Origin: an uncultured bacterium
GTDB lineage: Bacteria > Desulfobacterota_D > UBA1144 > Nemesobacterales > UBA2774
Reading direction: 5' to 3'
DNA: 64,000 nt
Assembly (NCBI GenBank): GCA_963825135.1
Contig: CAWGRW010000009.1
Span: forward strand, 1,696,001-1,760,000
Shown here: piece by piece, positions 10,485-21,053 of the stretch
How positions within the stretch are numbered: the first letter of the stretch is position 1
Layout of the letters: every line of letters starts with the position of its first letter
The notes under the pieces: generated by a model
What the model was told of the DNA's origin: nothing
The model's input: the letters and a program-made list of their open reading frames with translations, nothing else
The model's database searches: none
Made by a program: the position numbers and the translations under genes

Positions 10485-12917
10485 ATGACAATGCCGTCTC
10501 AAATACTGCCTGTCAACATCGAAGACGAGATGAAGGAGTCGTATCTCAGTTATTCGATGAGCGTAATCATCGGACGTGCCCTTCCGGACGTAAGGGATGG
10601 TTTGAAGCCTGTGCACAGGCGCATCCTTTACGGGATGGAAGAGGTCGGGAACCAGTGGAACAGGCCCTATAAAAAATCGGCGAGGATAGTCGGGGACGTG
10701 ATGGGTAAGTACCATCCCCACGGGGACGCCGCAATCTACGACGCGCTCGTCAGAATGGCGCAGGACTTCTCCATGCGGTACACGCTCGTCGACGGTCAGG
10801 GCAACTTCGGCTCTATCGACGGCGACCCCCCCGCGGCGATGAGGTACACGGAGGTCAGGCTCGACAGGATAGCGAGCGAGATACTGGCCGACCTCGATAA
10901 GGAGACCGTGGATTTCGTGCCGAATTACGACGGAGGCGAGAGGGAGCCCCTCGTGCTTCCGGCCAAGATACCGAACCTGCTGTTAAACGGCTCGTCGGGC
11001 ATCGCCGTCGGGATGTCTACCAATATCCCCCCTCACAACCTGAGTGAGCTTATAGACGCGATAGCGGCGCAGGCCGCCAATCCCGACATAACTCTCGACG
11101 AGCTCATGACGCACCTCCCCGGCCCCGATTTCCCCACCGGGGGCTTCATCACGGGCAGGGCCCCGATAAGAGAGGCTTACGAGACGGGCAGGGGAATAAT
11201 ACGAATAAGGGCCAAAGCCAGGATAGAGAGACAGAAGAAGGGAGACAAGGAAATAATAATAGTCAGCGAGATCCCTTATCAGGTGAACAAGGTCAAGCTG
11301 ATCGAGCGCATAGCGGAGCTCGTCAAGGACGAGAAGATAAAAGGCATATCCGATATAAGAGACGAGTCCGACAGAGAGGGGATAAGGCTGGTCATAGATA
11401 TCAAGCGCGGCGATATCGCAGACGTCGTATTGAACCAGCTTTACAAGCACACCCAGATGGACATGTCCTTCGGCATTATCATGCTCGCGCTAGTGAGGAA
11501 CCAGCCCCGAGTGCTCCCGCTCAAGGAGACGATTACCCACTTCATCGAGCACAGGAAGGAGGTCGTGACCAGGCGCACCCAGTATGAGCTGGGCAAGGCT
11601 GAAGAGAGGCTCCATATACTGGAAGGTCTCAAGATAGCGCTCGACCACCTGGACGAGGTCATAGCCCTCATCCGCAAGTCGGCGAGCCCTCAGGAAGCGA
11701 AAGACGGGCTAATGCAGAAACTCGCGCTATCGGCCGTCCAGGCCCAGGCTATACTCGACATGAGGCTCCAGCGCCTTACTGCGCTTGAGAGGGACAAGAT
11801 ACTCGAGGAAAGGAACGAGCTCATTAACACCGTTAAGCGCCTGAAGGAAATACTCGAGCACGAGCACCTGATCCTTGGGATAGTCACCGATGAGCTGAAA
11901 GAGATAAAGGATAAGTACGGGGACGAGAGGCGGACCGAAATTCTCGAGAGCTCCGAGGAAATCTCGATAGAGGACCTCATCGCGGATGAGGACATGGTCG
12001 TAACCATTACACACGAGGGCTATGTGAAAACGACCCCGCTCAGCATATACAGGAGTCAGAGAAGAGGGGGCAAGGGGAGGACGGGCATCACGACGAAGGA
12101 GCTCGATTTCGTCGAGACCCTTTTTATAGCGTCGAAGCACAACTACGTTCTCTTCTTCACGAACCTCGGCCGGTGTTACTGGATAAAGGTCCACGAGATA
12201 CCCGAAGCGGGCCCTACCGCTAGGGGAAAAGCCCTCGTCAACCTCCTGAGCTTGTCCGAAGGCGAGAAGGTCGCCGCGGTGCTCCCGGTGAGGGAATTCA
12301 AGGAAAACCAGTACATCATCATGGCTACCCGGAAGGGAGTGGTTAAGAAAACCAAGCTCATGGCTTATTCCAACCCCCGTGTGGGCGGCATAATTGCGCT
12401 CAACATCAGAGAGGACGACGAGCTTATAGCTGCCAGGATTACGAGCGGAAAAGACGAGATACTCATCACGTCCCATTTCGGCCAGGCGATAAGGTTCGAG
12501 GAAGACGACGTGAGGGATATGGGCAGGACTGCCACGGGCGTAATCGGCATCAGGCTCGACAAAGGGGACCAGGTCGTAAGCCTGGAGGTGATAGAGAACC
12601 CCGAGGCCCAGATCCTTACCGTCACCGAAATGGGTTACGGCAAGAGGACCCTCGTATCCGCGTACAGGGTAACGGGGCGGGGAGGAAAGGGCGTAATCAC
12701 GATCAAGACCTCCGGAAGGAACGGAAGGGTCGTTGGCGCTTTTCAGGTGACTAACGATACCCAGATAATGATAATAACGACACACGGCGGGAAGGTTATC
12801 AGGATGAACGCTTCGGAGATAAGCGTATTCGGGAGAGGGACTCAGGGCGTCACGCTCATCGATCTCGAGTCCGACGAAAAGGTAGCCGCAGTGGCAAAGG
12901 TGGTGGAGAGGGATTAG
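10485..12917 (+). CDS. gyrA: DNA gyrase subunit A
   Basis: [24 protein letters not shown], catalytic AAMRYTE, GyrA-box QRRGGKG and beta-pinwheel repeats. Confidence 0.98.
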
Positions 12918-12955
12918 TCCGGATATTTTTTCTTTGGCATATCCCCGGCGCGCAG

Positions 12956-13447
12956 ATGATCCGCGAGATTGAAAATATATTCCTCGATTTCCCCGGGTAC
13001 GGGTGCTTCGCCTGCGACCCGCGCAATACCCACGGGCTCCGGCTCAGATTCTACGCCGACGACGAAAAGGGGGATGTCTTCACCCGCACCACGCCCGAAA
13101 AACACCTCCAGGGCTTCCCGGGGATACTACACGGGGGCATACAGTGCGCGCTCGTCGACGAAGTAGCTTTCTGGACCATGTTCGACAGGTACAAAAAGAT
13201 CGCTCTGACCGCAAAGATAGACATGGAGTTCCTGAGGCCGGTGGGGACGGCGTCGGAGCTCGAGGTGAGGGGCAGGATAGCCGGGGAGGACGGGCGTAAA
13301 GTCGGGGTCGAGGTGATTATCTATGAGCAAAACAAGGTTTGCACCAGGAGCAGGGTAGATTATATTATCCCGAAGAAAGAAGTGACCTTGAGGGTAATGG
13401 GTAAAGAGAGGTTCACCGAAAAATTCAAAAAGTACCTGGATGACTGA
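12956..13447 (+). CDS. PaaI-family (hotdog fold) thioesterase
   Basis: CFACDPRNTHGL, GFPGILHGG...LVDE. Confidence 0.88.
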   Translation: MIREIENIFLDFPGYGCFACDPRNTHGLRLRFYADDEKGDVFTRTTPEKHLQGFPGILHGGIQCALVDEVAFWTMFDRYKKIALTAKIDMEFLRPVGTASELEVRGRIAGEDGRKVGVEVIIYEQNKVCTRSRVDYIIPKKEVTLRVMGKERFTEKFKKYLDD

Positions 13448-13449
13448 CG

Positions 13450-14055
13450 ATGCTGAAACTATACGATAATCCGCTCTCCGGGAATTGCTACAAGGTCAGG
13501 CTGGCTTTGAACCAGCTCGGGGTCGAATACGAGAGAGAGTACCTCGACATATTTAAAGGAGAGCAGCACACCCGCGATTATGAATCGCTGAATCCGAACA
13601 GGAAGATACCGGTCCTCATAGACGACGGATTCCATATGTGGGAGTCAAACGCCATACTTTTATACCTGGGCAAGAAATACTCCCCTAACCGGTTATACCC
13701 GGAGGACCTCCGGGGGTTCGGCGCCATGGCTCAGTGGCTCTTTTACGGCAAGACCTCGGTCGATCCGAACCTGGCTGTAGCCAGGTACCTTATGAAATTC
13801 ATGAGCCCCGCGGATAGGGACGAAAAGAAGCTTAACGATCTCCGCGCACAGGGCGGCGGCGTGCTCAGGGTTCTCGATGCTCACCTCGAACACAAAGAAT
13901 TTCTTGCCGGGACGTATTCGATAGCTGATATAGCGTGTTACCCGTACGTAAGCCTGGCGCCCGAGGGAGGCATCGACCTTTCACCCTACCCGAGCGTAAT
14001 ATTGTGGTGCGACCGAATCAGGTCCCAGCCGGGTTATATTTCCATGGAGGATTGA
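13450..14055 (+). CDS. Glutathione S-transferase family protein
   Basis: SGNCYKVRL, NPNRKIPVL, WESNAIL, YSIADIA. Confidence 0.93.
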   Translation: MLKLYDNPLSGNCYKVRLALNQLGVEYEREYLDIFKGEQHTRDYESLNPNRKIPVLIDDGFHMWESNAILLYLGKKYSPNRLYPEDLRGFGAMAQWLFYGKTSVDPNLAVARYLMKFMSPADRDEKKLNDLRAQGGGVLRVLDAHLEHKEFLAGTYSIADIACYPYVSLAPEGGIDLSPYPSVILWCDRIRSQPGYISMED

Positions 14056-14060
14056 ACGGA

Positions 14061-14137
14061 TGGAGCGGGAAACGGGATTCGAACCCGCGACCTTCTCCTT
14101 GGCAAGGAGACGCTCTAGCCAGCTGAGCTATTCCCGC
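14061..14137 (-). tRNA. tRNA-Gly(GCC), CCA encoded
   Basis: GCGGGAATAGCTCAG...TCTCC-TTGCCAA-GGAGA...GGTTCGAATCCC...TCCCGCTCCA, 77 nt. Confidence 0.97.
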
Positions 14138-14151
14138 TTAGCAGAAGAACT

Positions 14152-14180
14152 AAGATAGCCAGGCCGGGGCTCGTTGTCAA
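14152..14180 (-). promoter_or_regulatory. sigma70 promoter of tRNA-Gly
   Basis: TTGACA-N17-TATCTT directly upstream of the tRNA. Confidence 0.65.
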
Positions 14181-14234
14181 GAAAATACGTGAATTCGGGC
14201 TCGATATTTAAAAAATATAATTTGTCGGGATTAC

Positions 14235-15377
14235 ATGAAAAAATCTGACAGAAAGTCGATTATCTCCGGGGTTAAAAGGGTTATTGTCAAAATAGGAAGC
14301 AGTGTCCTTACGGATAAGAAGGGCAGTTTGTCCGAGAGCGTTTTCGATCTCCTCGCGGGTGAGATATCCAAAATCAAGTCCCGACATATCGAGGTCGTAG
14401 TCGTATCGTCCGGGGCTATAGCGTCGGGGATGAAGAAGCTCCATATCAGCAGGAAGCCGACCGAGATATCGATGAAACAAGCTATAGCGGCCTGCGGACA
14501 GAGTACGCTCATCTGGAATTACGAAAGGGCGTTTTCGTCTTTCGGGCTTATCGTCGCGCAGATACTTATCACCCATGACGGTCTTGCGGACAGGAAGAGG
14601 TTCTTAAACGCCCGGAAGACCCTGACCACGCTCCTCGGAATGGGAATAATTCCGATCATAAACGAGAACGATACGGTGGCCGTTGAAGAAATAATGCTCG
14701 GCGACAACGATAACCTCGCGGCGCTCGTGACCTCGCTCGTGGAAGCGGACCTCCTCATACTGCTTACCGATATAGAGGGCCTCTATAACAAAGACCCCAG
14801 AATGAACAAGGACGCGGAATTCATATCCCTGATAGACCGGATAGGCGAGGAGATAGAGTCGGTCGCGGGCGATACCCTCGGCAGCACGACCACGGGAGGG
14901 ATGATAACGAAGATCCAGGCCGCAAGGGCTGCGGCCGCCTTCGGCGTGCCGACTATCATCGCAAACGGGAAATCCAAGAACACGCTAGCCGATATATTCG
15001 ACGGCAGGGATGTCGGCACTATTTTCCTCCCGTCGAAGAAGAGCCTACGCGGCAGGAAACACTGGATTGCATTTACGCTTAAGTCCTCGGGCGAGCTCGT
15101 CATAGACGGGGGAGCGGAGAAGGCCATCACGACTCAAGGCAAGAGCCTCCTCCCTTCGGGCATAAAGGACGTGCGCGGAAAGTTCGGGATCGGGGATTCG
15201 ATAACGTGCGTTGACGAGGATGGGGTCGCGGTCGCGAGGGGGCTCACGTCGTACAGCTCTGAGGAAATACGCCGGATAATGGGACGGAGCACGAAAGAGG
15301 TCGAGAGCATTCTCGGGTACAAATACAGTGATGAGGTCATCCATCGGGATGATCTGGCAGTCATTGAAAAGCGCTGA
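14235..15377 (+). CDS. proB: Glutamate 5-kinase with PUA domain
   Basis: VKIGSS, VSSGAIASG, INENDTV, GDND, TGGMITKI, C-terminal PUA (GKSLLPSGI...VIHRDDL). Confidence 0.97.
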   Translation: MKKSDRKSIISGVKRVIVKIGSSVLTDKKGSLSESVFDLLAGEISKIKSRHIEVVVVSSGAIASGMKKLHISRKPTEISMKQAIAACGQSTLIWNYERAFSSFGLIVAQILITHDGLADRKRFLNARKTLTTLLGMGIIPIINENDTVAVEEIMLGDNDNLAALVTSLVEADLLILLTDIEGLYNKDPRMNKDAEFISLIDRIGEEIESVAGDTLGSTTTGGMITKIQAARAAAAFGVPTIIANGKSKNTLADIFDGRDVGTIFLPSKKSLRGRKHWIAFTLKSSGELVIDGGAEKAITTQGKSLLPSGIKDVRGKFGIGDSITCVDEDGVAVARGLTSYSSEEIRRIMGRSTKEVESILGYKYSDEVIHRDDLAVIEKR

Positions 15378-15395
15378 TGGGTTTAATCTCTTGAA

Positions 15396-16397
15396 ATGGG
15401 TTCCGGAAAATTAAAGATAGCCTCTCTTGCGGTTCTAATAATAGCGCTACTCGGCGCTTCTGTTGCGCTCGGCGTTTACTACTACATCAACTTCATCACT
15501 TCCGTCTCTGCAGACAAAGTCGTCGACATACCTAAAGGCAAGGGCTTGAGGAAGATATCGTCGTTACTCGAGGAAAACGGGGTAATCGGCAGCCGCGACC
15601 TCTTTATGGTCTATGTAATCGGCAAAGGCTGGCAGGACAGGCTTAAAGCTGGAGAGTATGAGTTTAAAAAGGGTGATACCACGGCGAAAGTGGCCCTTAA
15701 GCTCTCGGTAGGGGACGTTATCGTCCACAAGGTCACTATCCCCGAGGGGCTCACCGTGAGGGAGACCGCGGAGCTCCTGGGCAGGAACGGCGTGCTTGAC
15801 CCGGACGAGTTCCTTGCCGCGACCCGCGACCCGAAGATACTGGACAGCCTGCCCGGACGCTCTGTCCCCGGTATCGAAGGTTATCTCTTTCCCGACACCT
15901 ATTCGTATGCCAAGGGGATAACAGCCCCGGAATTTGTCCGGATGATGGTGAGCAGGTTCAAAAAGGTGTATAGCTCGCTCGGCGGATTGAAGAACAGGGT
16001 AAACCTTACGGACAACGAGGTAATTACGCTCGCCTCCATTATTGAAAAAGAAACCGGCGCCCCTGCCGAGAGGCCGCTCGTTTCGGCTGTTTTCCATAAC
16101 CGTTTGAAGCTCGGCATGCGGCTCGAGAGCGACCCGACGGTTATCTACGGAATGGGGGAGGAATTCGACGGCGACCTTACGAGAGACGACCTGAATACTA
16201 TGACCGAGTACAACACATATCTGTTGAAAGGCCTCCCCCCCGGCCCGATCTCCAATCCCGGCAGGGAGTCGATTATCGCCGCCTTAAGCCCGGCACCCGT
16301 CGATTATATTTATTTCGTGGCGAGGGGAGACGGCACCCACTACTTCTCGAATAATTACCAGGACCACCTGAGGGCCGTATCCGAATATCAGAAATAA
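15396..16397 (+). CDS. mltG: Endolytic transglycosylase MltG (YceG)
   Basis: N-terminal TM; LKAGEY, TIPEG, EGYLFPDTY, LASIIEKET, YNTY...GLPPGPISNPG. Confidence 0.96.
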   Translation: MGSGKLKIASLAVLIIALLGASVALGVYYYINFITSVSADKVVDIPKGKGLRKISSLLEENGVIGSRDLFMVYVIGKGWQDRLKAGEYEFKKGDTTAKVALKLSVGDVIVHKVTIPEGLTVRETAELLGRNGVLDPDEFLAATRDPKILDSLPGRSVPGIEGYLFPDTYSYAKGITAPEFVRMMVSRFKKVYSSLGGLKNRVNLTDNEVITLASIIEKETGAPAERPLVSAVFHNRLKLGMRLESDPTVIYGMGEEFDGDLTRDDLNTMTEYNTYLLKGLPPGPISNPGRESIIAALSPAPVDYIYFVARGDGTHYFSNNYQDHLRAVSEYQK

Positions 16398-16401
16398 GAG
16401 G

Positions 16402-17577
16402 CTAGGAAAATACCCTGCCGAAAGGATCGACCTGCGATTTGTCTTCATTTACGGGAACAACGAGCTTGTTGTCCCTCCTCTCGATCCTTATTGTCCCGTC
16501 CTTTCTCCGTGTGGCAATGAACTGCGTCCCGCTGGTCTCGCCGGATATCCTCTGGAGTATGCGGGGATAGTTCTTTGAGCCGATGAAGATCGAGTGTATG
16601 CACACGCCTAATTTTTTTGCCCTCCCCCGTTCTTCGAGCACGTCGCAATCGCCCGAGGTCGGGATGCCGTCCGTAATAAACAGTATGTGCTTGTTCCTGA
16701 GCCCTCGCCCCCTGAATTCGGTCAGAGCGTCCTTCAACGCGTCTTCGTAATTCGTGTTTCCCGAACACTCGGTCTTGGAGGCGAGCTCCAGCATCCACTG
16801 GTAATCCCTGGTGAAGAATTTGGAGTTCCTCTTGTATTTATACGAGCGGTGGTTGAATTCCACATAGCCGACCATCATCTTTTTCGCCCTGGCGAGCTCT
16901 ACCACTCCCCTCACGACGGACGACGACCATTCGCTGTACACGCCCATCATAGACGTGCTTACGTCCCTGAGGATCGCTATCTCGCCTCCCATCATCTCTT
17001 TTTCCCGTTTATGTACCCTCGGGAGAGTCGGCGTGGTGTACTCGGACCAGAACATTACCTCAAACGGATCGACGTCCTCAACTTCGTCGAAATAATTCAT
17101 CCTCTTCCATGTCCTCGGCATTCCCCCGGGATGGGGGGCCCTCAAGGCTATGCTCCTCTGGAAATTTCCTTCGAGGACTTTCATTATTACCTTTACGTTG
17201 TCCGCGGACTCGAGGTTCCTTTTGCCGCCTATCCAGTAATCCTCTTCGTCGCCCGGGTCCGGGGACTTGCTTGCGAATACCTTGCTCGTCTTAGGGGGCT
17301 GCTTCTCGTTTCTCTTCGTACCGTCGTCAGAGAGCTGACCCTCGGGGTCAGACGGAATGTTCATATCCTCGGGCGGAGCCATGGAGCTCTCCTTCTGGAT
17401 GTTTTCCTTGAGTTCTTTTAAGGCTTGAAAGAAGGTCTTTCGGGCTTCGGTAAGCTGGTCCTGGGATTCTTTTTTCCCCCGGTCATCTGGGGAATCCTGT
17501 TTCTGCTCTTGGGGGGCGTCGTTGTCAAACTCTGATGACGGCTGCGGCTCTAGCTCGCTCCCCCTGTCCCTGTCTTT
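16402..17577 (-). CDS. Acidic linker + VWA domain frame; first ATG at 17382, but the frame is open back across the A11 slippery run (candidate C-terminal half of a frameshift fusion)
   Basis: MIDAS motif DVSTS, GNTNY, FITDG. No stop codon in this frame from 17676 down to the stop at 16402. Confidence 0.8.
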   Translation of the reverse strand, partial: KDRDRGSELEPQPSSEFDNDAPQEQKQDSPDDRGKKESQDQLTEARKTFFQALKELKENIQKESSMAPPEDMNIPSDPEGQLSDDGTKRNEKQPPKTSKVFASKSPDPGDEEDYWIGGKRNLESADNVKVIMKVLEGNFQRSIALRAPHPGGMPRTWKRMNYFDEVEDVDPFEVMFWSEYTTPTLPRVHKREKEMMGGEIAILRDVSTSMMGVYSEWSSSVVRGVVELARAKKMMVGYVEFNHRSYKYKRNSKFFTRDYQWMLELASKTECSGNTNYEDALKDALTEFRGRGLRNKHILFITDGIPTSGDCDVLEERGRAKKLGVCIHSIFIGSKNYPRILQRISGETSGTQFIATRRKDGTIRIERRDNKLVVPVNEDKSQVDPFGRVFS

Positions 17578-18512
17578 TTTTTTTTGGACGTGAGGTCCTC
17601 GATAATCTGGTCGAGCTGCAGAAACACCTCTTCGGGAATTCGGAAAGCAGTCATGTATTTCAGCGCTTTTAAGTCCTCAACCGTGCACGCGTCCCTTCCG
17701 TTGAGAAGAGCGTGCGCCCTCATTATCTTGAGTGACTTTACGAAGAACGTTCTGTCGGAAATGAGGGAATTGGTCTCGTTGCACCCATAGTCCTCTATGA
17801 GCGTCTCGACGAACCTTGCGAGCCCTTCCTGGACTTCGAGCGGTATTTCAAGACTGCCCAGTTTTTTGTAGTAATCATCGAACACTTCCCTGCTGACCCT
17901 TGCAGGTACATGGTATTCAAGGGGTCTTTGAGTATATAGCTTGATGACCTCCCTTGCCTCGTCCCATTTCTTCCCGTATGACAGGCCCTGCGCGTTTATC
18001 TGTAGGACGAACCTGTCGAGGTTGGCCGGGTCGAGGGGCTCGTTATAGTACTCGTCCGCCGTCGGGTTGGAGGTAGCGATTGCGGTCAAAAGCGGTATGT
18101 CCTCGTCAAAGAACTTTCTTTCGTTAAGAATCCTGAGGAGTACGTTCAGCGATTCGCCCGGAGCCCTGGATATATCGTCCAGGAGGCAGATCTCGGCTGT
18201 CAGAATTCCGCCCTTCACAACCTTTTGTTTTATCACTTCGCCGGTATCGGTGATTTCTTTAGAAATGACCAGGTCCCCGATCAGCTCCGAGAGCCTGGTG
18301 TCCCTGTGAAGCTGGTAGAAGAAGAATTTCAACTGTGCCGCTCCCGAGACGATTTCGGCGAGCATTGTCTTGGCCGTCCCGGGCGGTCCTTCCACATAGA
18401 TATGCTCTCTGGCTATTATGCCGAGGAGGAGCGATATCTTGACCCCCTCGTGTCCGATAACCAATTTATCCATTTCTTCTTTCAGAGCTACGAATGGATT
18501 CTGTGATGTCAT
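17550..18512 (-). CDS. MoxR/RavA-type AAA+ ATPase
   Basis: Walker A GPPGTAKT, Walker B variant LLDD, LNVLLRILNER, ATSN, R-finger LDRF, ISDRT. Confidence 0.9.
   Translation of the reverse strand: MTSQNPFVALKEEMDKLVIGHEGVKISLLLGIIAREHIYVEGPPGTAKTMLAEIVSGAAQLKFFFYQLHRDTRLSELIGDLVISKEITDTGEVIKQKVVKGGILTAEICLLDDISRAPGESLNVLLRILNERKFFDEDIPLLTAIATSNPTADEYYNEPLDPANLDRFVLQINAQGLSYGKKWDEAREVIKLYTQRPLEYHVPARVSREVFDDYYKKLGSLEIPLEVQEGLARFVETLIEDYGCNETNSLISDRTFFVKSLKIMRAHALLNGRDACTVEDLKALKYMTAFRIPEEVFLQLDQIIEDLTSKKKKTGTGGAS
17574..17585 (-). other. A11G homopolymer / A_AAA_AAG slippery site, candidate -1 recoding signal
   Basis: Minus strand reads TCC AAA AAA AAA AAG ACA in the AAA+ frame; the -1 frame gives AAA GAC AGG GAC..., which is the VWA frame. 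Confidence 0.6.
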
Positions 18513-18554: not shown

Positions 18555-18583
18555 ATTGTACATAAGCGGGTTTTTTTTTGCAA
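18555..18583 (-). promoter_or_regulatory. Putative sigma70 promoter of the AAA+/VWA locus, with an A9 tract
   Basis: TTGCAA-N17-TACAAT; A9 run (plus-strand T 18571-18579) spans the -35/spacer junction. Confidence 0.55.
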
Positions 18584-20174: not shown

Positions 20175-20609
20175 ATGCATATGAAAGCACTACTCAGCGG
20201 TGTTATTTTTACATCATTGGTTTTATTCATGCCTACCTGGGCCCGCGCGGCCGTATGGCAGCCTGTAGGTTTCGGCACCGTGGACGCCACTTCCAGATTC
20301 AGGGTTTTTATCGATACGGACAGCATACAGGGTTTTGGAGGAAAGGTCAGGTTCTGGCAGGGGCATGTGTTTAACGAGGAGCAGCCTCTACCGTCCGGAA
20401 AAACGTTCGTGAGGGTTTCGATCTCGCGCGTGGTCGACTGTGACGAGAAGAGCGATTCGAGCCTGCAAGCTATATTCTACGGTGCGGGTGGGGCTATCGT
20501 CGATAAATACGATACACGCGGCGTGATGAACTTTAGTCCGGTCAAGCCCGCTACGATAAGCGAAGCGGTTTTAACTTATGTCTGTAACTACGTAAATCGG
20601 AAAGGGTAG
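20175..20609 (+). CDS. Exported protein, surface-adhesin E-like pattern
   Basis: Signal peptide ending ARA; W...FIDTDSI...VRFW...VDC...FY...LTYVC pattern. Confidence 0.6.
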   Translation: MHMKALLSGVIFTSLVLFMPTWARAAVWQPVGFGTVDATSRFRVFIDTDSIQGFGGKVRFWQGHVFNEEQPLPSGKTFVRVSISRVVDCDEKSDSSLQAIFYGAGGAIVDKYDTRGVMNFSPVKPATISEAVLTYVCNYVNRKG

Positions 20610-20618
20610 GAGTTCTTA

Positions 20619-21053
20619 ATGTACAGAAGATCGCCGTTAGCTATTGTGATGCTTTTTTCCGTACTGACTTTATTCTTTTCGTGCCGCGGGGACGAGTCCG
20701 AGAAGGACGGCTGGAAATACGTCGGTCCGATAAATGACGAGAAGGGGGCCAGCGTCCAGGTATATCTGGATGTGGCGAACATGGAAATCAATGGGAATAA
20801 AAGGAAGTTCTGGATCAAGTATGTGGCCAAGATAGAGAATGAAGGGGGGGCTCCGGAGGAATACATACGTCAGACGGGGTATTGGGAGATTGACTGCTTT
20901 GACAGGTCGTTATTCAGGCTTGCGGAGGAATATTACAGCCCCGGCGGCAAGCTGCTCGGGAGAACGGAAAAAAGGGTGAGAGAGGAATATAGCTCTTATG
21001 AGTCCCTCGGGGCTAAAATGTCGGACGCAGCCTGCCGGTATGCGGGGAAGTAG
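20619..21053 (+). CDS. Lipoprotein, surface-adhesin E-like pattern
   Basis: Lipobox-like FFSC; W...YLDVANM...KFW...EIDC...YY...DAAC pattern. Confidence 0.6.
   Translation: MYRRSPLAIVMLFSVLTLFFSCRGDESEKDGWKYVGPINDEKGASVQVYLDVANMEINGNKRKFWIKYVAKIENEGGAPEEYIRQTGYWEIDCFDRSLFRLAEEYYSPGGKLLGRTEKRVREEYSSYESLGAKMSDAACRYAGK

Follow-up and report, generated by a model that had tools for sequence, protein, structure and literature searches.

CbbQ-CbbO and RavA-ViaA are pairs of a MoxR AAA+ ATPase and a VWA partner that are encoded as two genes. In the NorQD complex, a single VWA finger is found in the pore of the NorQ hexamer (PMC13036017). Slippage on adenine runs has been described for other AAA+ genes; in dnaX, Escherichia coli makes use of ribosomal -1 frameshifting at A_AAA_AAG, and Thermus thermophilus of transcriptional slippage on a run of 9 nucleotides (nt) (PMC5009743, PMC3711429). 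Bacterial RNA polymerase is reported to slip efficiently on nine A or T residues (Atkins 2016, PMC5009743), and poly-A lengths of 7, 9 and 11 at a chelatase junction gave 10, 40 and 63% of shifted product in E. coli, the level of the shift not being resolved (Antonov 2013, PMC3711429). The poly-A device together with the AAA+-linker-VWA architecture is already published for chlD (PMC3711429; PMC9227772), and the device itself for dnaX. The present study concerns a MoxR-VWA locus in a 64-kb window of an uncultured Desulfobacterota_D bacterium (contig CAWGRW010000009.1, positions 1,696,001 to 1,760,000), in which a MoxR-class ATPase frame and a VWA frame meet at a run of eleven adenines (A11). 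The initial annotation of this stretch had proposed that the locus makes a 320-residue (aa) ATPase and a 703-aa AAA-linker-VWA fusion by recoding, and the conserved run, the selected linker and the tree described below lend support to this proposal. Our interpretation is that one ancestral gene for a MoxR AAA+ module, a linker and a VWA domain, with its two halves joined by a conserved slippery poly-A run, probably gives both the short ATPase and the fusion through slippage; we put the probability of this at roughly 85%.

The locus and its two reading frames

All coordinates are positions in the window, and the whole MoxR-VWA locus lies on the minus strand. The AAA+ open reading frame (ORF; 18512..17550, zero frame), assigned by Pfam and sequence, codes for the MoxR-class ATPase of 320 aa which would be the short product. 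Its 3' end reads ...TCC AAA AAA AAA AAG ACA GGG ACA GGG GGA GCG AGC TAG. The A11 tract (17585..17575), the proposed site of a one-base shift, codes together with G17574 for KKKK in the zero frame, and the TAG that terminates the short product (17552..17550) stands seven codons past it, within codons that the -1 frame reads as GAG CTA GAG and that are conserved in the linker. This second frame is free of stops from 17676 to 16402 (its own stop is at 16404..16402), and its first ATG, GTG or TTG is the ATG at 17382, which is 192 nt (64 codons) past A11. The 64 codons in between (17383..17574) form a linker without its own start codon, acidic and predicted to be disordered and then helical. The linker carries the near-invariant motif TEARKTFFQALKELKENIQ (17395..17451, predicted helix), which lies upstream of Met17382 and would be translatable only after a shift. 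The remainder of the -1 frame (16402..17382) comprises a second conserved helix (17205..17143), a PHPGG motif and the VWA domain. A shift inside A11 would join 313 and 390 residues into a protein of 703 aa; natural in-frame fusions, of which many are present in the database with AAA+ parts up to 83% identical, have lengths of 700-714 aa. The two frames, A11, the position of the TAG and the open -1 frame agree with the initial annotation, and the GAGGA 10 nt upstream of A11 and the AAGGAG before ATG 17382 which it had pointed out are both present.

In the mechanism that we propose, standard decoding of the A11 mRNA would give the 320-aa ATPase alone. A fraction of molecules would shift by one base within the run and yield the 703-aa ATPase-linker-VWA fusion, most likely through the addition of one A by RNA polymerase (A12 transcripts), and ribosomal -1 frameshifting on A_AAA_AAG may contribute. 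In relatives having the two halves in frame, the run would act in reverse, with the fusion made by default and the short ATPase coming from slipped molecules. As both products share the AAA+ module, they would be expected to co-assemble into mixed rings carrying fewer VWA adaptor domains, each with its adhesion site of the metal ion-dependent kind (MIDAS), than subunits. Such a mixture of short and long forms is a plausible purpose of the device, because a ring made only of fusions would bring six VWA domains to one pore; the single VWA finger in the NorQD pore gives a reason for keeping VWA domains fewer than ATPase subunits.

Conservation of the run and the linker

Orthologues were searched for in 120 genomes of the phylum (E <= 1e-60) and found in 117, including genomes of 0.8-1.0 Mb. 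From these 116 loci were taken, G005 being left out with its gene cut by a contig end, and both halves are present in 115 of them (L115 is likewise cut by a contig end). When these loci were aligned, as the initial annotation had suggested, an uninterrupted run of nine to twelve adenines (A9-A12) was found at the junction in all 115. The VWA half lies at -1 in 94 loci (A9 in 4, A10 in 62 and A11 in 28), in frame in 18 and at +1 in 3. The orthologues are therefore neither always in-frame fusions nor always separate genes without the run, the pattern which the annotation had set against recoding; relatives of both kinds are present and the run is kept in them, the in-frame genes also carrying A9-A12 at the same place in their DNA. 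Close relatives may differ by one A only: L024 has A10 at -1 and L049 and L052 have A11 in frame, L046 has A12 in frame and L044 has A11 at -1, and L042 has A10 where L013 has A11. The three +1 loci (L038 in G035, L042 in G098 and L106 in G111) are each one A short of their nearest relatives, and these may be assembly errors or real variants. L116 was counted among the 18 in-frame loci and then dropped from later counts; this locus (G073:C6:499-2994) is full of frame breaks and garbled stretches and has three in-frame TGA codons, and is either an error-rich assembly or a pseudogene. In L039 and L113, N's adjoin the run.

The placement of the run is tightly constrained by the frames around it. 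In the -1 loci the zero-frame stop follows 2-8 codons past the run, and in many loci the -1 frame opens only within the run, where TAA is formed by a T and the first two A's; the shift would thus have to be confined to the run. Lysine elsewhere in these genes is coded by 3332 AAA and 2730 AAG codons (55% AAA), and hence three to four successive AAA codons in every species are not expected from codon usage. Within the genome of the window (3.13 Mb, 53% G+C) the A11 is the sole A/T homopolymer of at least 11, and the counts of A/T runs are 25 at length 9, two at length 10 and one at length 11. The A11 run exceeds chance expectation.

In the -1-frame alignment the motif of the linker reads (S/T)EA(R/Q)KTFFQALKELKxN(I/L), where 110/110 sequences have the F, 109/110 the L and 108/110 the A, and it sits upstream of the sole candidate Met. 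The ratio of nonsynonymous to synonymous substitution rates (dN/dS) over the linker is 0.08, 0.09, 0.17 and 0.12 for the window against L006, L009, L010 and L014, respectively, and 0.06 for L036 against L094; these are the 5 of 14 pairs in which it could be estimated, the other nine being more distant and saturated at synonymous sites. From these comparisons the linker is judged to be under purifying selection and translated. Start codons were scored in 93 out-of-frame loci (four with N's were left out), and in 47 of them, the window included, no ATG, GTG or TTG occurs from the point where the frame opens up to the motif. Taken at the level of sequence, a shift within the run is required to produce a conserved and selected protein, and the run itself is selected in both frame states.

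The locus could instead be an ordinary gene pair like ravA-viaA, in which a MoxR ATPase sits next to a VWA adaptor with a start of its own and the A run is incidental. Such a start is at hand in the window, where AAGGAG stands 6 nt upstream of ATG 17382 (17380..17394) and may serve as the internal start of a stand-alone 326-aa VWA protein. Public gene calls likewise have a 326-aa VWA ORF from Met17382, whose 90% cluster has 73 members (326 aa is the length of most among the 15 listed), and MoxR ATPases usually have separately encoded VWA partners, as NorQ and NorD do (PMC13036017). Against this stand the selection and the near-invariant motif in the 64 codons before the Met, the run in every one of the 115 loci and the existence of in-frame fusions. 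Moreover, the column of Met17382 holds Met in 74 of the 93 out-of-frame loci and S, L, G or I in the other 19, and only 8 of these 74 have a strong Shine-Dalgarno (SD) core before the Met, all of them from the genus of the window. Met is present at this column in 11 of 17 in-frame genes too (4 of the 11 with a strong SD core), so its conservation appears to be that of a residue rather than of a start. The caveat of the initial annotation on AAGGAG and ATG 17382 thus holds for the genus of the window and fails elsewhere, and a stand-alone VWA protein, as judged from these alignments, is not the conserved design. We regard two ordinary genes as very unlikely.

The run has also been traced outside the phylum. 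A scan centred on distant homologues gave 31 loci of other lineages, and in three further clades the run is kept in 17 of 17 loci. Loci labelled Entotheonellaceae or Tectimicrobiota have A10 in 10 of 10, eight in frame and two at -1; in the latter two (L203 and L204, labelled Entotheonella) a TAG follows A10 at once, and the eight loci closest to them have this A10 in frame. Both Nitrospinota-labelled loci have A10 in frame, and the five loci of a clade with a Poribacteria-labelled metagenome-assembled genome have A10-A11 in frame. The peptide encoded at the run varies among clades (RKKK, NKKKI or QKKN); because QKKN, found in the Poribacteria-type clade, replaces RKKK or NKKKI while the A run stays, the nucleotide run would seem to be kept rather than the peptide. 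In-frame fusions without a run were found at 12 loci (SAR324-labelled, Lambdaproteobacteria-labelled and others), and L234 and L237 are apparently a different, AAA-only gene. In a FastTree phylogeny of the AAA+ part with 133 rows (six loci with N's, stops or short sequences were skipped, as were L115 and L116), the run-less genes form one side of a branch with support of 100. Across the remaining 123 rows there is no loss of the run. The in-frame or out-of-frame state has changed at least 7 times on this tree.

These changes of state, and the differences of one A between close relatives given above, would be compatible with phase variation, in which replication slippage heritably switches a population between the fused and the split gene and a cell does not make both products. 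On the other hand, the states hold steady over large clades; the gene, found in 117 of 120 genomes, is cytoplasmic, conserved and of the housekeeping type and not a surface or contingency gene; and an in-frame state would not need to keep the run. Phase variation is accordingly given little credence, about as little as the pair of ordinary genes.

Origin of the shift and strength of the reading

The initial annotation had placed the shift at an A11 / A_AAA_AAG slippery site and had noted a GAGGA upstream of the run. In the comparison, it is the run alone that is conserved, with at least nine A's in any codon phase; the A_AAA_AAG heptamer and the GAGGA are not. The run is never shorter than nine A's, although in some codon phases 7 or 8 are enough for the ribosomal heptamer, and it starts at codon position 2 in 20 of the -1 loci and at position 3 in 6 loci. 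An upstream SD-like 4-mer is not conserved, being found in just 21 of 97 out-of-frame loci. No conserved RNA structure was detected by RNAalifold in 60 nt upstream and 80 nt downstream of the run in 24 representatives, where single-sequence z-scores were scattered about zero, in line with the earlier remark that a convincing downstream hairpin is lacking. As only the run is conserved, and not the heptamer, the GAGGA or a hairpin, slippage of RNA polymerase would be at least as likely as ribosomal frameshifting. The +1 loci, if real, would need a deletion or an insertion of two bases to be rescued, and have been counted for the polymerase. Overall we lean slightly towards polymerase slippage as the main contributor, and both processes may act.

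On a broader reading of the same data, the A tract would be an ancient device for polymerase slippage that predates the phylum and fixes the ratio of bare to VWA-tethered subunits in the MoxR ring, and frequent slippage would let lineages flip the default genotype with neither product being lost. Were slippage on 9-12 A's so frequent, at least seven changes of frame state without a single loss of the run would be accounted for. We hold this reading only tentatively, at a little under an even chance, and the same doubt attaches to its further part, that the device is common to the Entotheonellaceae-, Nitrospinota- and Poribacteria-labelled lineages. If it is true, the gene would be a natural paired experiment on how transcriptional slippage controls stoichiometry in a near-universal housekeeping gene of the phylum.

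Three other A9 or T9 runs lie in long ORFs of this genome outside the window (G000:C9:529376-529384, 801747-801755 and 1778629-1778637), in a histidyl-tRNA synthetase-like (HisRS-like) gene, a 620-aa ORF of unknown function and an oligopeptidase F gene, respectively. All of them are in frame, and a dnaX-like use of the genome's other A9 runs was rejected since those in long ORFs leave the frame intact. If polymerase slippage is efficient at nine A's in this organism, these three genes should give truncated by-products.

Several observations weigh against the slippage reading or limit its scope. The contigs assembled from three public DNA runs all end at or beside A11 and none bridges 17575-17585, the one RNA run gave no cover, and the length of homopolymers is prone to error, as the three +1 loci and the frame-broken L116 illustrate. 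In the genus of the window a stand-alone VWA protein may also be made, given the AAGGAG before ATG 17382. An in-phase A_AAA_AAR heptamer is present in every -1 locus and has been counted for the ribosome, and the sequence by itself leaves the choice between ribosome and polymerase unsettled. As a signature of polymerase slippage, the prompt stops in both shifted frames of the in-frame genes are real but do not stand out within the phylum, where 9-55% of gene positions do as well; only in the Poribacteria-type loci and in some of the Entotheonellaceae type are they distinctive (0.5-3%). The median is 0.145 (n=31).

The idea that the true DNA has A12, and that the gene is a plain in-frame fusion split by an assembly or sequencing error, could draw on the contig breaks and error-prone homopolymers just named, on the in-frame A12 of the close relative L046 and on the three loci one A shorter than their relatives and one assembly with many indels, but it is the least credible of the alternatives, because the -1 offset is common to 94 of 115 independent species-level assemblies with clade-specific run lengths (A11 in all 9 tree loci of the genus of the window, A10 in all 34 of a clade of another family), the 326-aa VWA call recurs on many contigs, and contig names, going by their titles, suggest both short-read and single-chromosome assemblies.

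Protein family and comparison with known systems

The AAA+ ORF matches the Pfam models bpMoxR (1e-20, 74 bits), AAA_5 (5.8e-19, 69 bits) and AAA_3 (2.2e-11, 44 bits), all above cut-off, and the -1 frame matches VWA_3 (4.7e-08), VWA (6.1e-08) and VWA_2. The nearest PDB sequences of the AAA+ part are the MoxR-like protein 2r44 (2.3e-17), RavA (7e-14) and midasin, and no chelatase is found among its PDB sequence matches. A chelatase of the chlD/bchD type was rejected: PF01078 reaches 17.6 bits, short of its cut-off of 20.3, and covers just 39 residues, and TIGR02442 reaches 28 bits against 779 on the fused homologue. The PF01078 matches of the genome lie elsewhere and not at the MoxR-VWA locus. 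No match to PF02514 (CobN/ChlH) was found in this genome (G000, 94% complete), and matches were found in 5 of 14 control genomes. The earlier assignment to a MoxR rather than a chelatase system is thus borne out, the MoxR models passing and the chelatase models failing in a genome with no CobN/ChlH match. RavA was rejected as well (equivalog NF010054, 64.8 bits against a cut-off of 681), and by sequence the protein is MoxR-like but neither RavA nor a member of any named subfamily.

The Walker A motif GPPGTAKT is at 18389..18366 in the AAA+ ORF, and a Walker B-like LLDD (18185..18174, residues 110-113) has D-D in place of the canonical D-E. MoxR proteins as a rule have D-E in their Walker B. 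Here the pattern hhhhD-E is absent, and 15 diverse homologues carry the LLD-D (D112, D113) without exception. With its D-D Walker B, the ATPase may be slow or regulated.

The linker-VWA piece of 395 aa was modelled with AlphaFold2 on an alignment of 83 rows (mean predicted local distance difference test score, pLDDT, 71.6). The model starts with a disordered acidic stretch (1-43), after which the conserved motif forms a helix (44-67); another disordered stretch then leads to a second helix at 126-145 and a confidently predicted VWA fold. Foldseek finds generic VWA domains, among them NorD from the NorQD complex (ranks 31 and 36), and the piece has no sequence match in PDB. The MIDAS is formed by DVSTS (D-x-S-x-S, 16965..16951), a T within 16764..16747 and a D within 16680..16666; these residues (D209, S211, S213, T279 and D307) are invariant in 83 sequences, which bears out the intact MIDAS of the initial annotation.

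The MoxR-VWA gene is monocistronic and flanked by oppositely oriented housekeeping genes. On one side lies the convergent block gyrA - 4HBT thioesterase - GST - proB - mltG (YceG) on the plus strand (10485-16397), which is syntenic in six distant genomes of the phylum (L275-L280), and the upstream neighbours vary. The neighbourhood gave no clue to the substrate in the window and these six distant relatives. In the same flanks no third gene for a beta-propeller protein was found, and the MoxR-VWA-beta-propeller ternary system, the source of PF20030, was set aside. A minus-strand A9 is present at 18571-18579, about 60 nt upstream of the AAA+ start codon, in the divergent intergenic region between this gene and that of a Na:alanine symporter. 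It belongs to the 28 A/T runs of at least 9 in the genome and might conceivably have a role in the promoter or leader, through reiterative transcription or as an UP-like element. Further away on the plus strand, 20175-20609 and 20619-21053 are tandem ORFs of 144 aa which both match Adhesin_E (surface-adhesin protein E).

These findings bear on the way in which MoxR rings may take on a VWA adaptor in sub-stoichiometric amount. Beyond mobile elements, dnaX and prfB, there are to our knowledge few conserved recoding sites in cellular genes, and the MoxR-VWA site is near-universal in its phylum and reaches other phyla. No description of the site was found in the literature on MoxR-VWA genes or on this phylum, a search that did not cover one supplement of Antonov 2013. 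Annotation pipelines read the gene as two, an 'AAA family ATPase' and a 'vWA domain-containing protein' truncated at its 5' end, and miss the linker with its conserved helix. Further, the in-frame and -1 genotypes with the same run provide a test bed for distinguishing polymerase slippage from ribosomal frameshifting.

Among described systems, frameshifted chlD shares with this locus the order of AAA+, acidic linker and VWA/MIDAS, and a poly-A or A_AAA_AAR site ending the AAA+ part with the VWA part at -1 (PMC3711429, PMC9227772, PMC5009743). There too the short product is the ATPase subunit, the long one is an ATPase-VWA protein and in-frame fused homologues exist elsewhere (PMC3711429). The present family differs from the chlD of class I Mg/Co chelatases in being MoxR-like, and in a run that always has at least nine A's and is kept in in-frame genes too; the solution of one gene for a short ATPase and a long ATPase-VWA protein, known from chlD, would hence be used in the MoxR branch also. 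With the tau and gamma products of dnaX the locus would share one gene giving long and short AAA+ forms through poly-A, the dnaX forms co-assembling in a ring-like complex, and both polarities are known there, with the long form either in frame or needing the shift (PMC5009743, PMC3711429). The protein family and function are unrelated to those of dnaX, and the C-terminal extension here is a VWA adaptor domain. NorQ-NorD, finally, has in common with this locus a MoxR-class ATPase and a MIDAS-bearing VWA partner; in that system the two are separate genes with their own starts, whereas here they would be covalently fused, with the dose of the VWA domain proposed to be set by slippage (PMC13036017).

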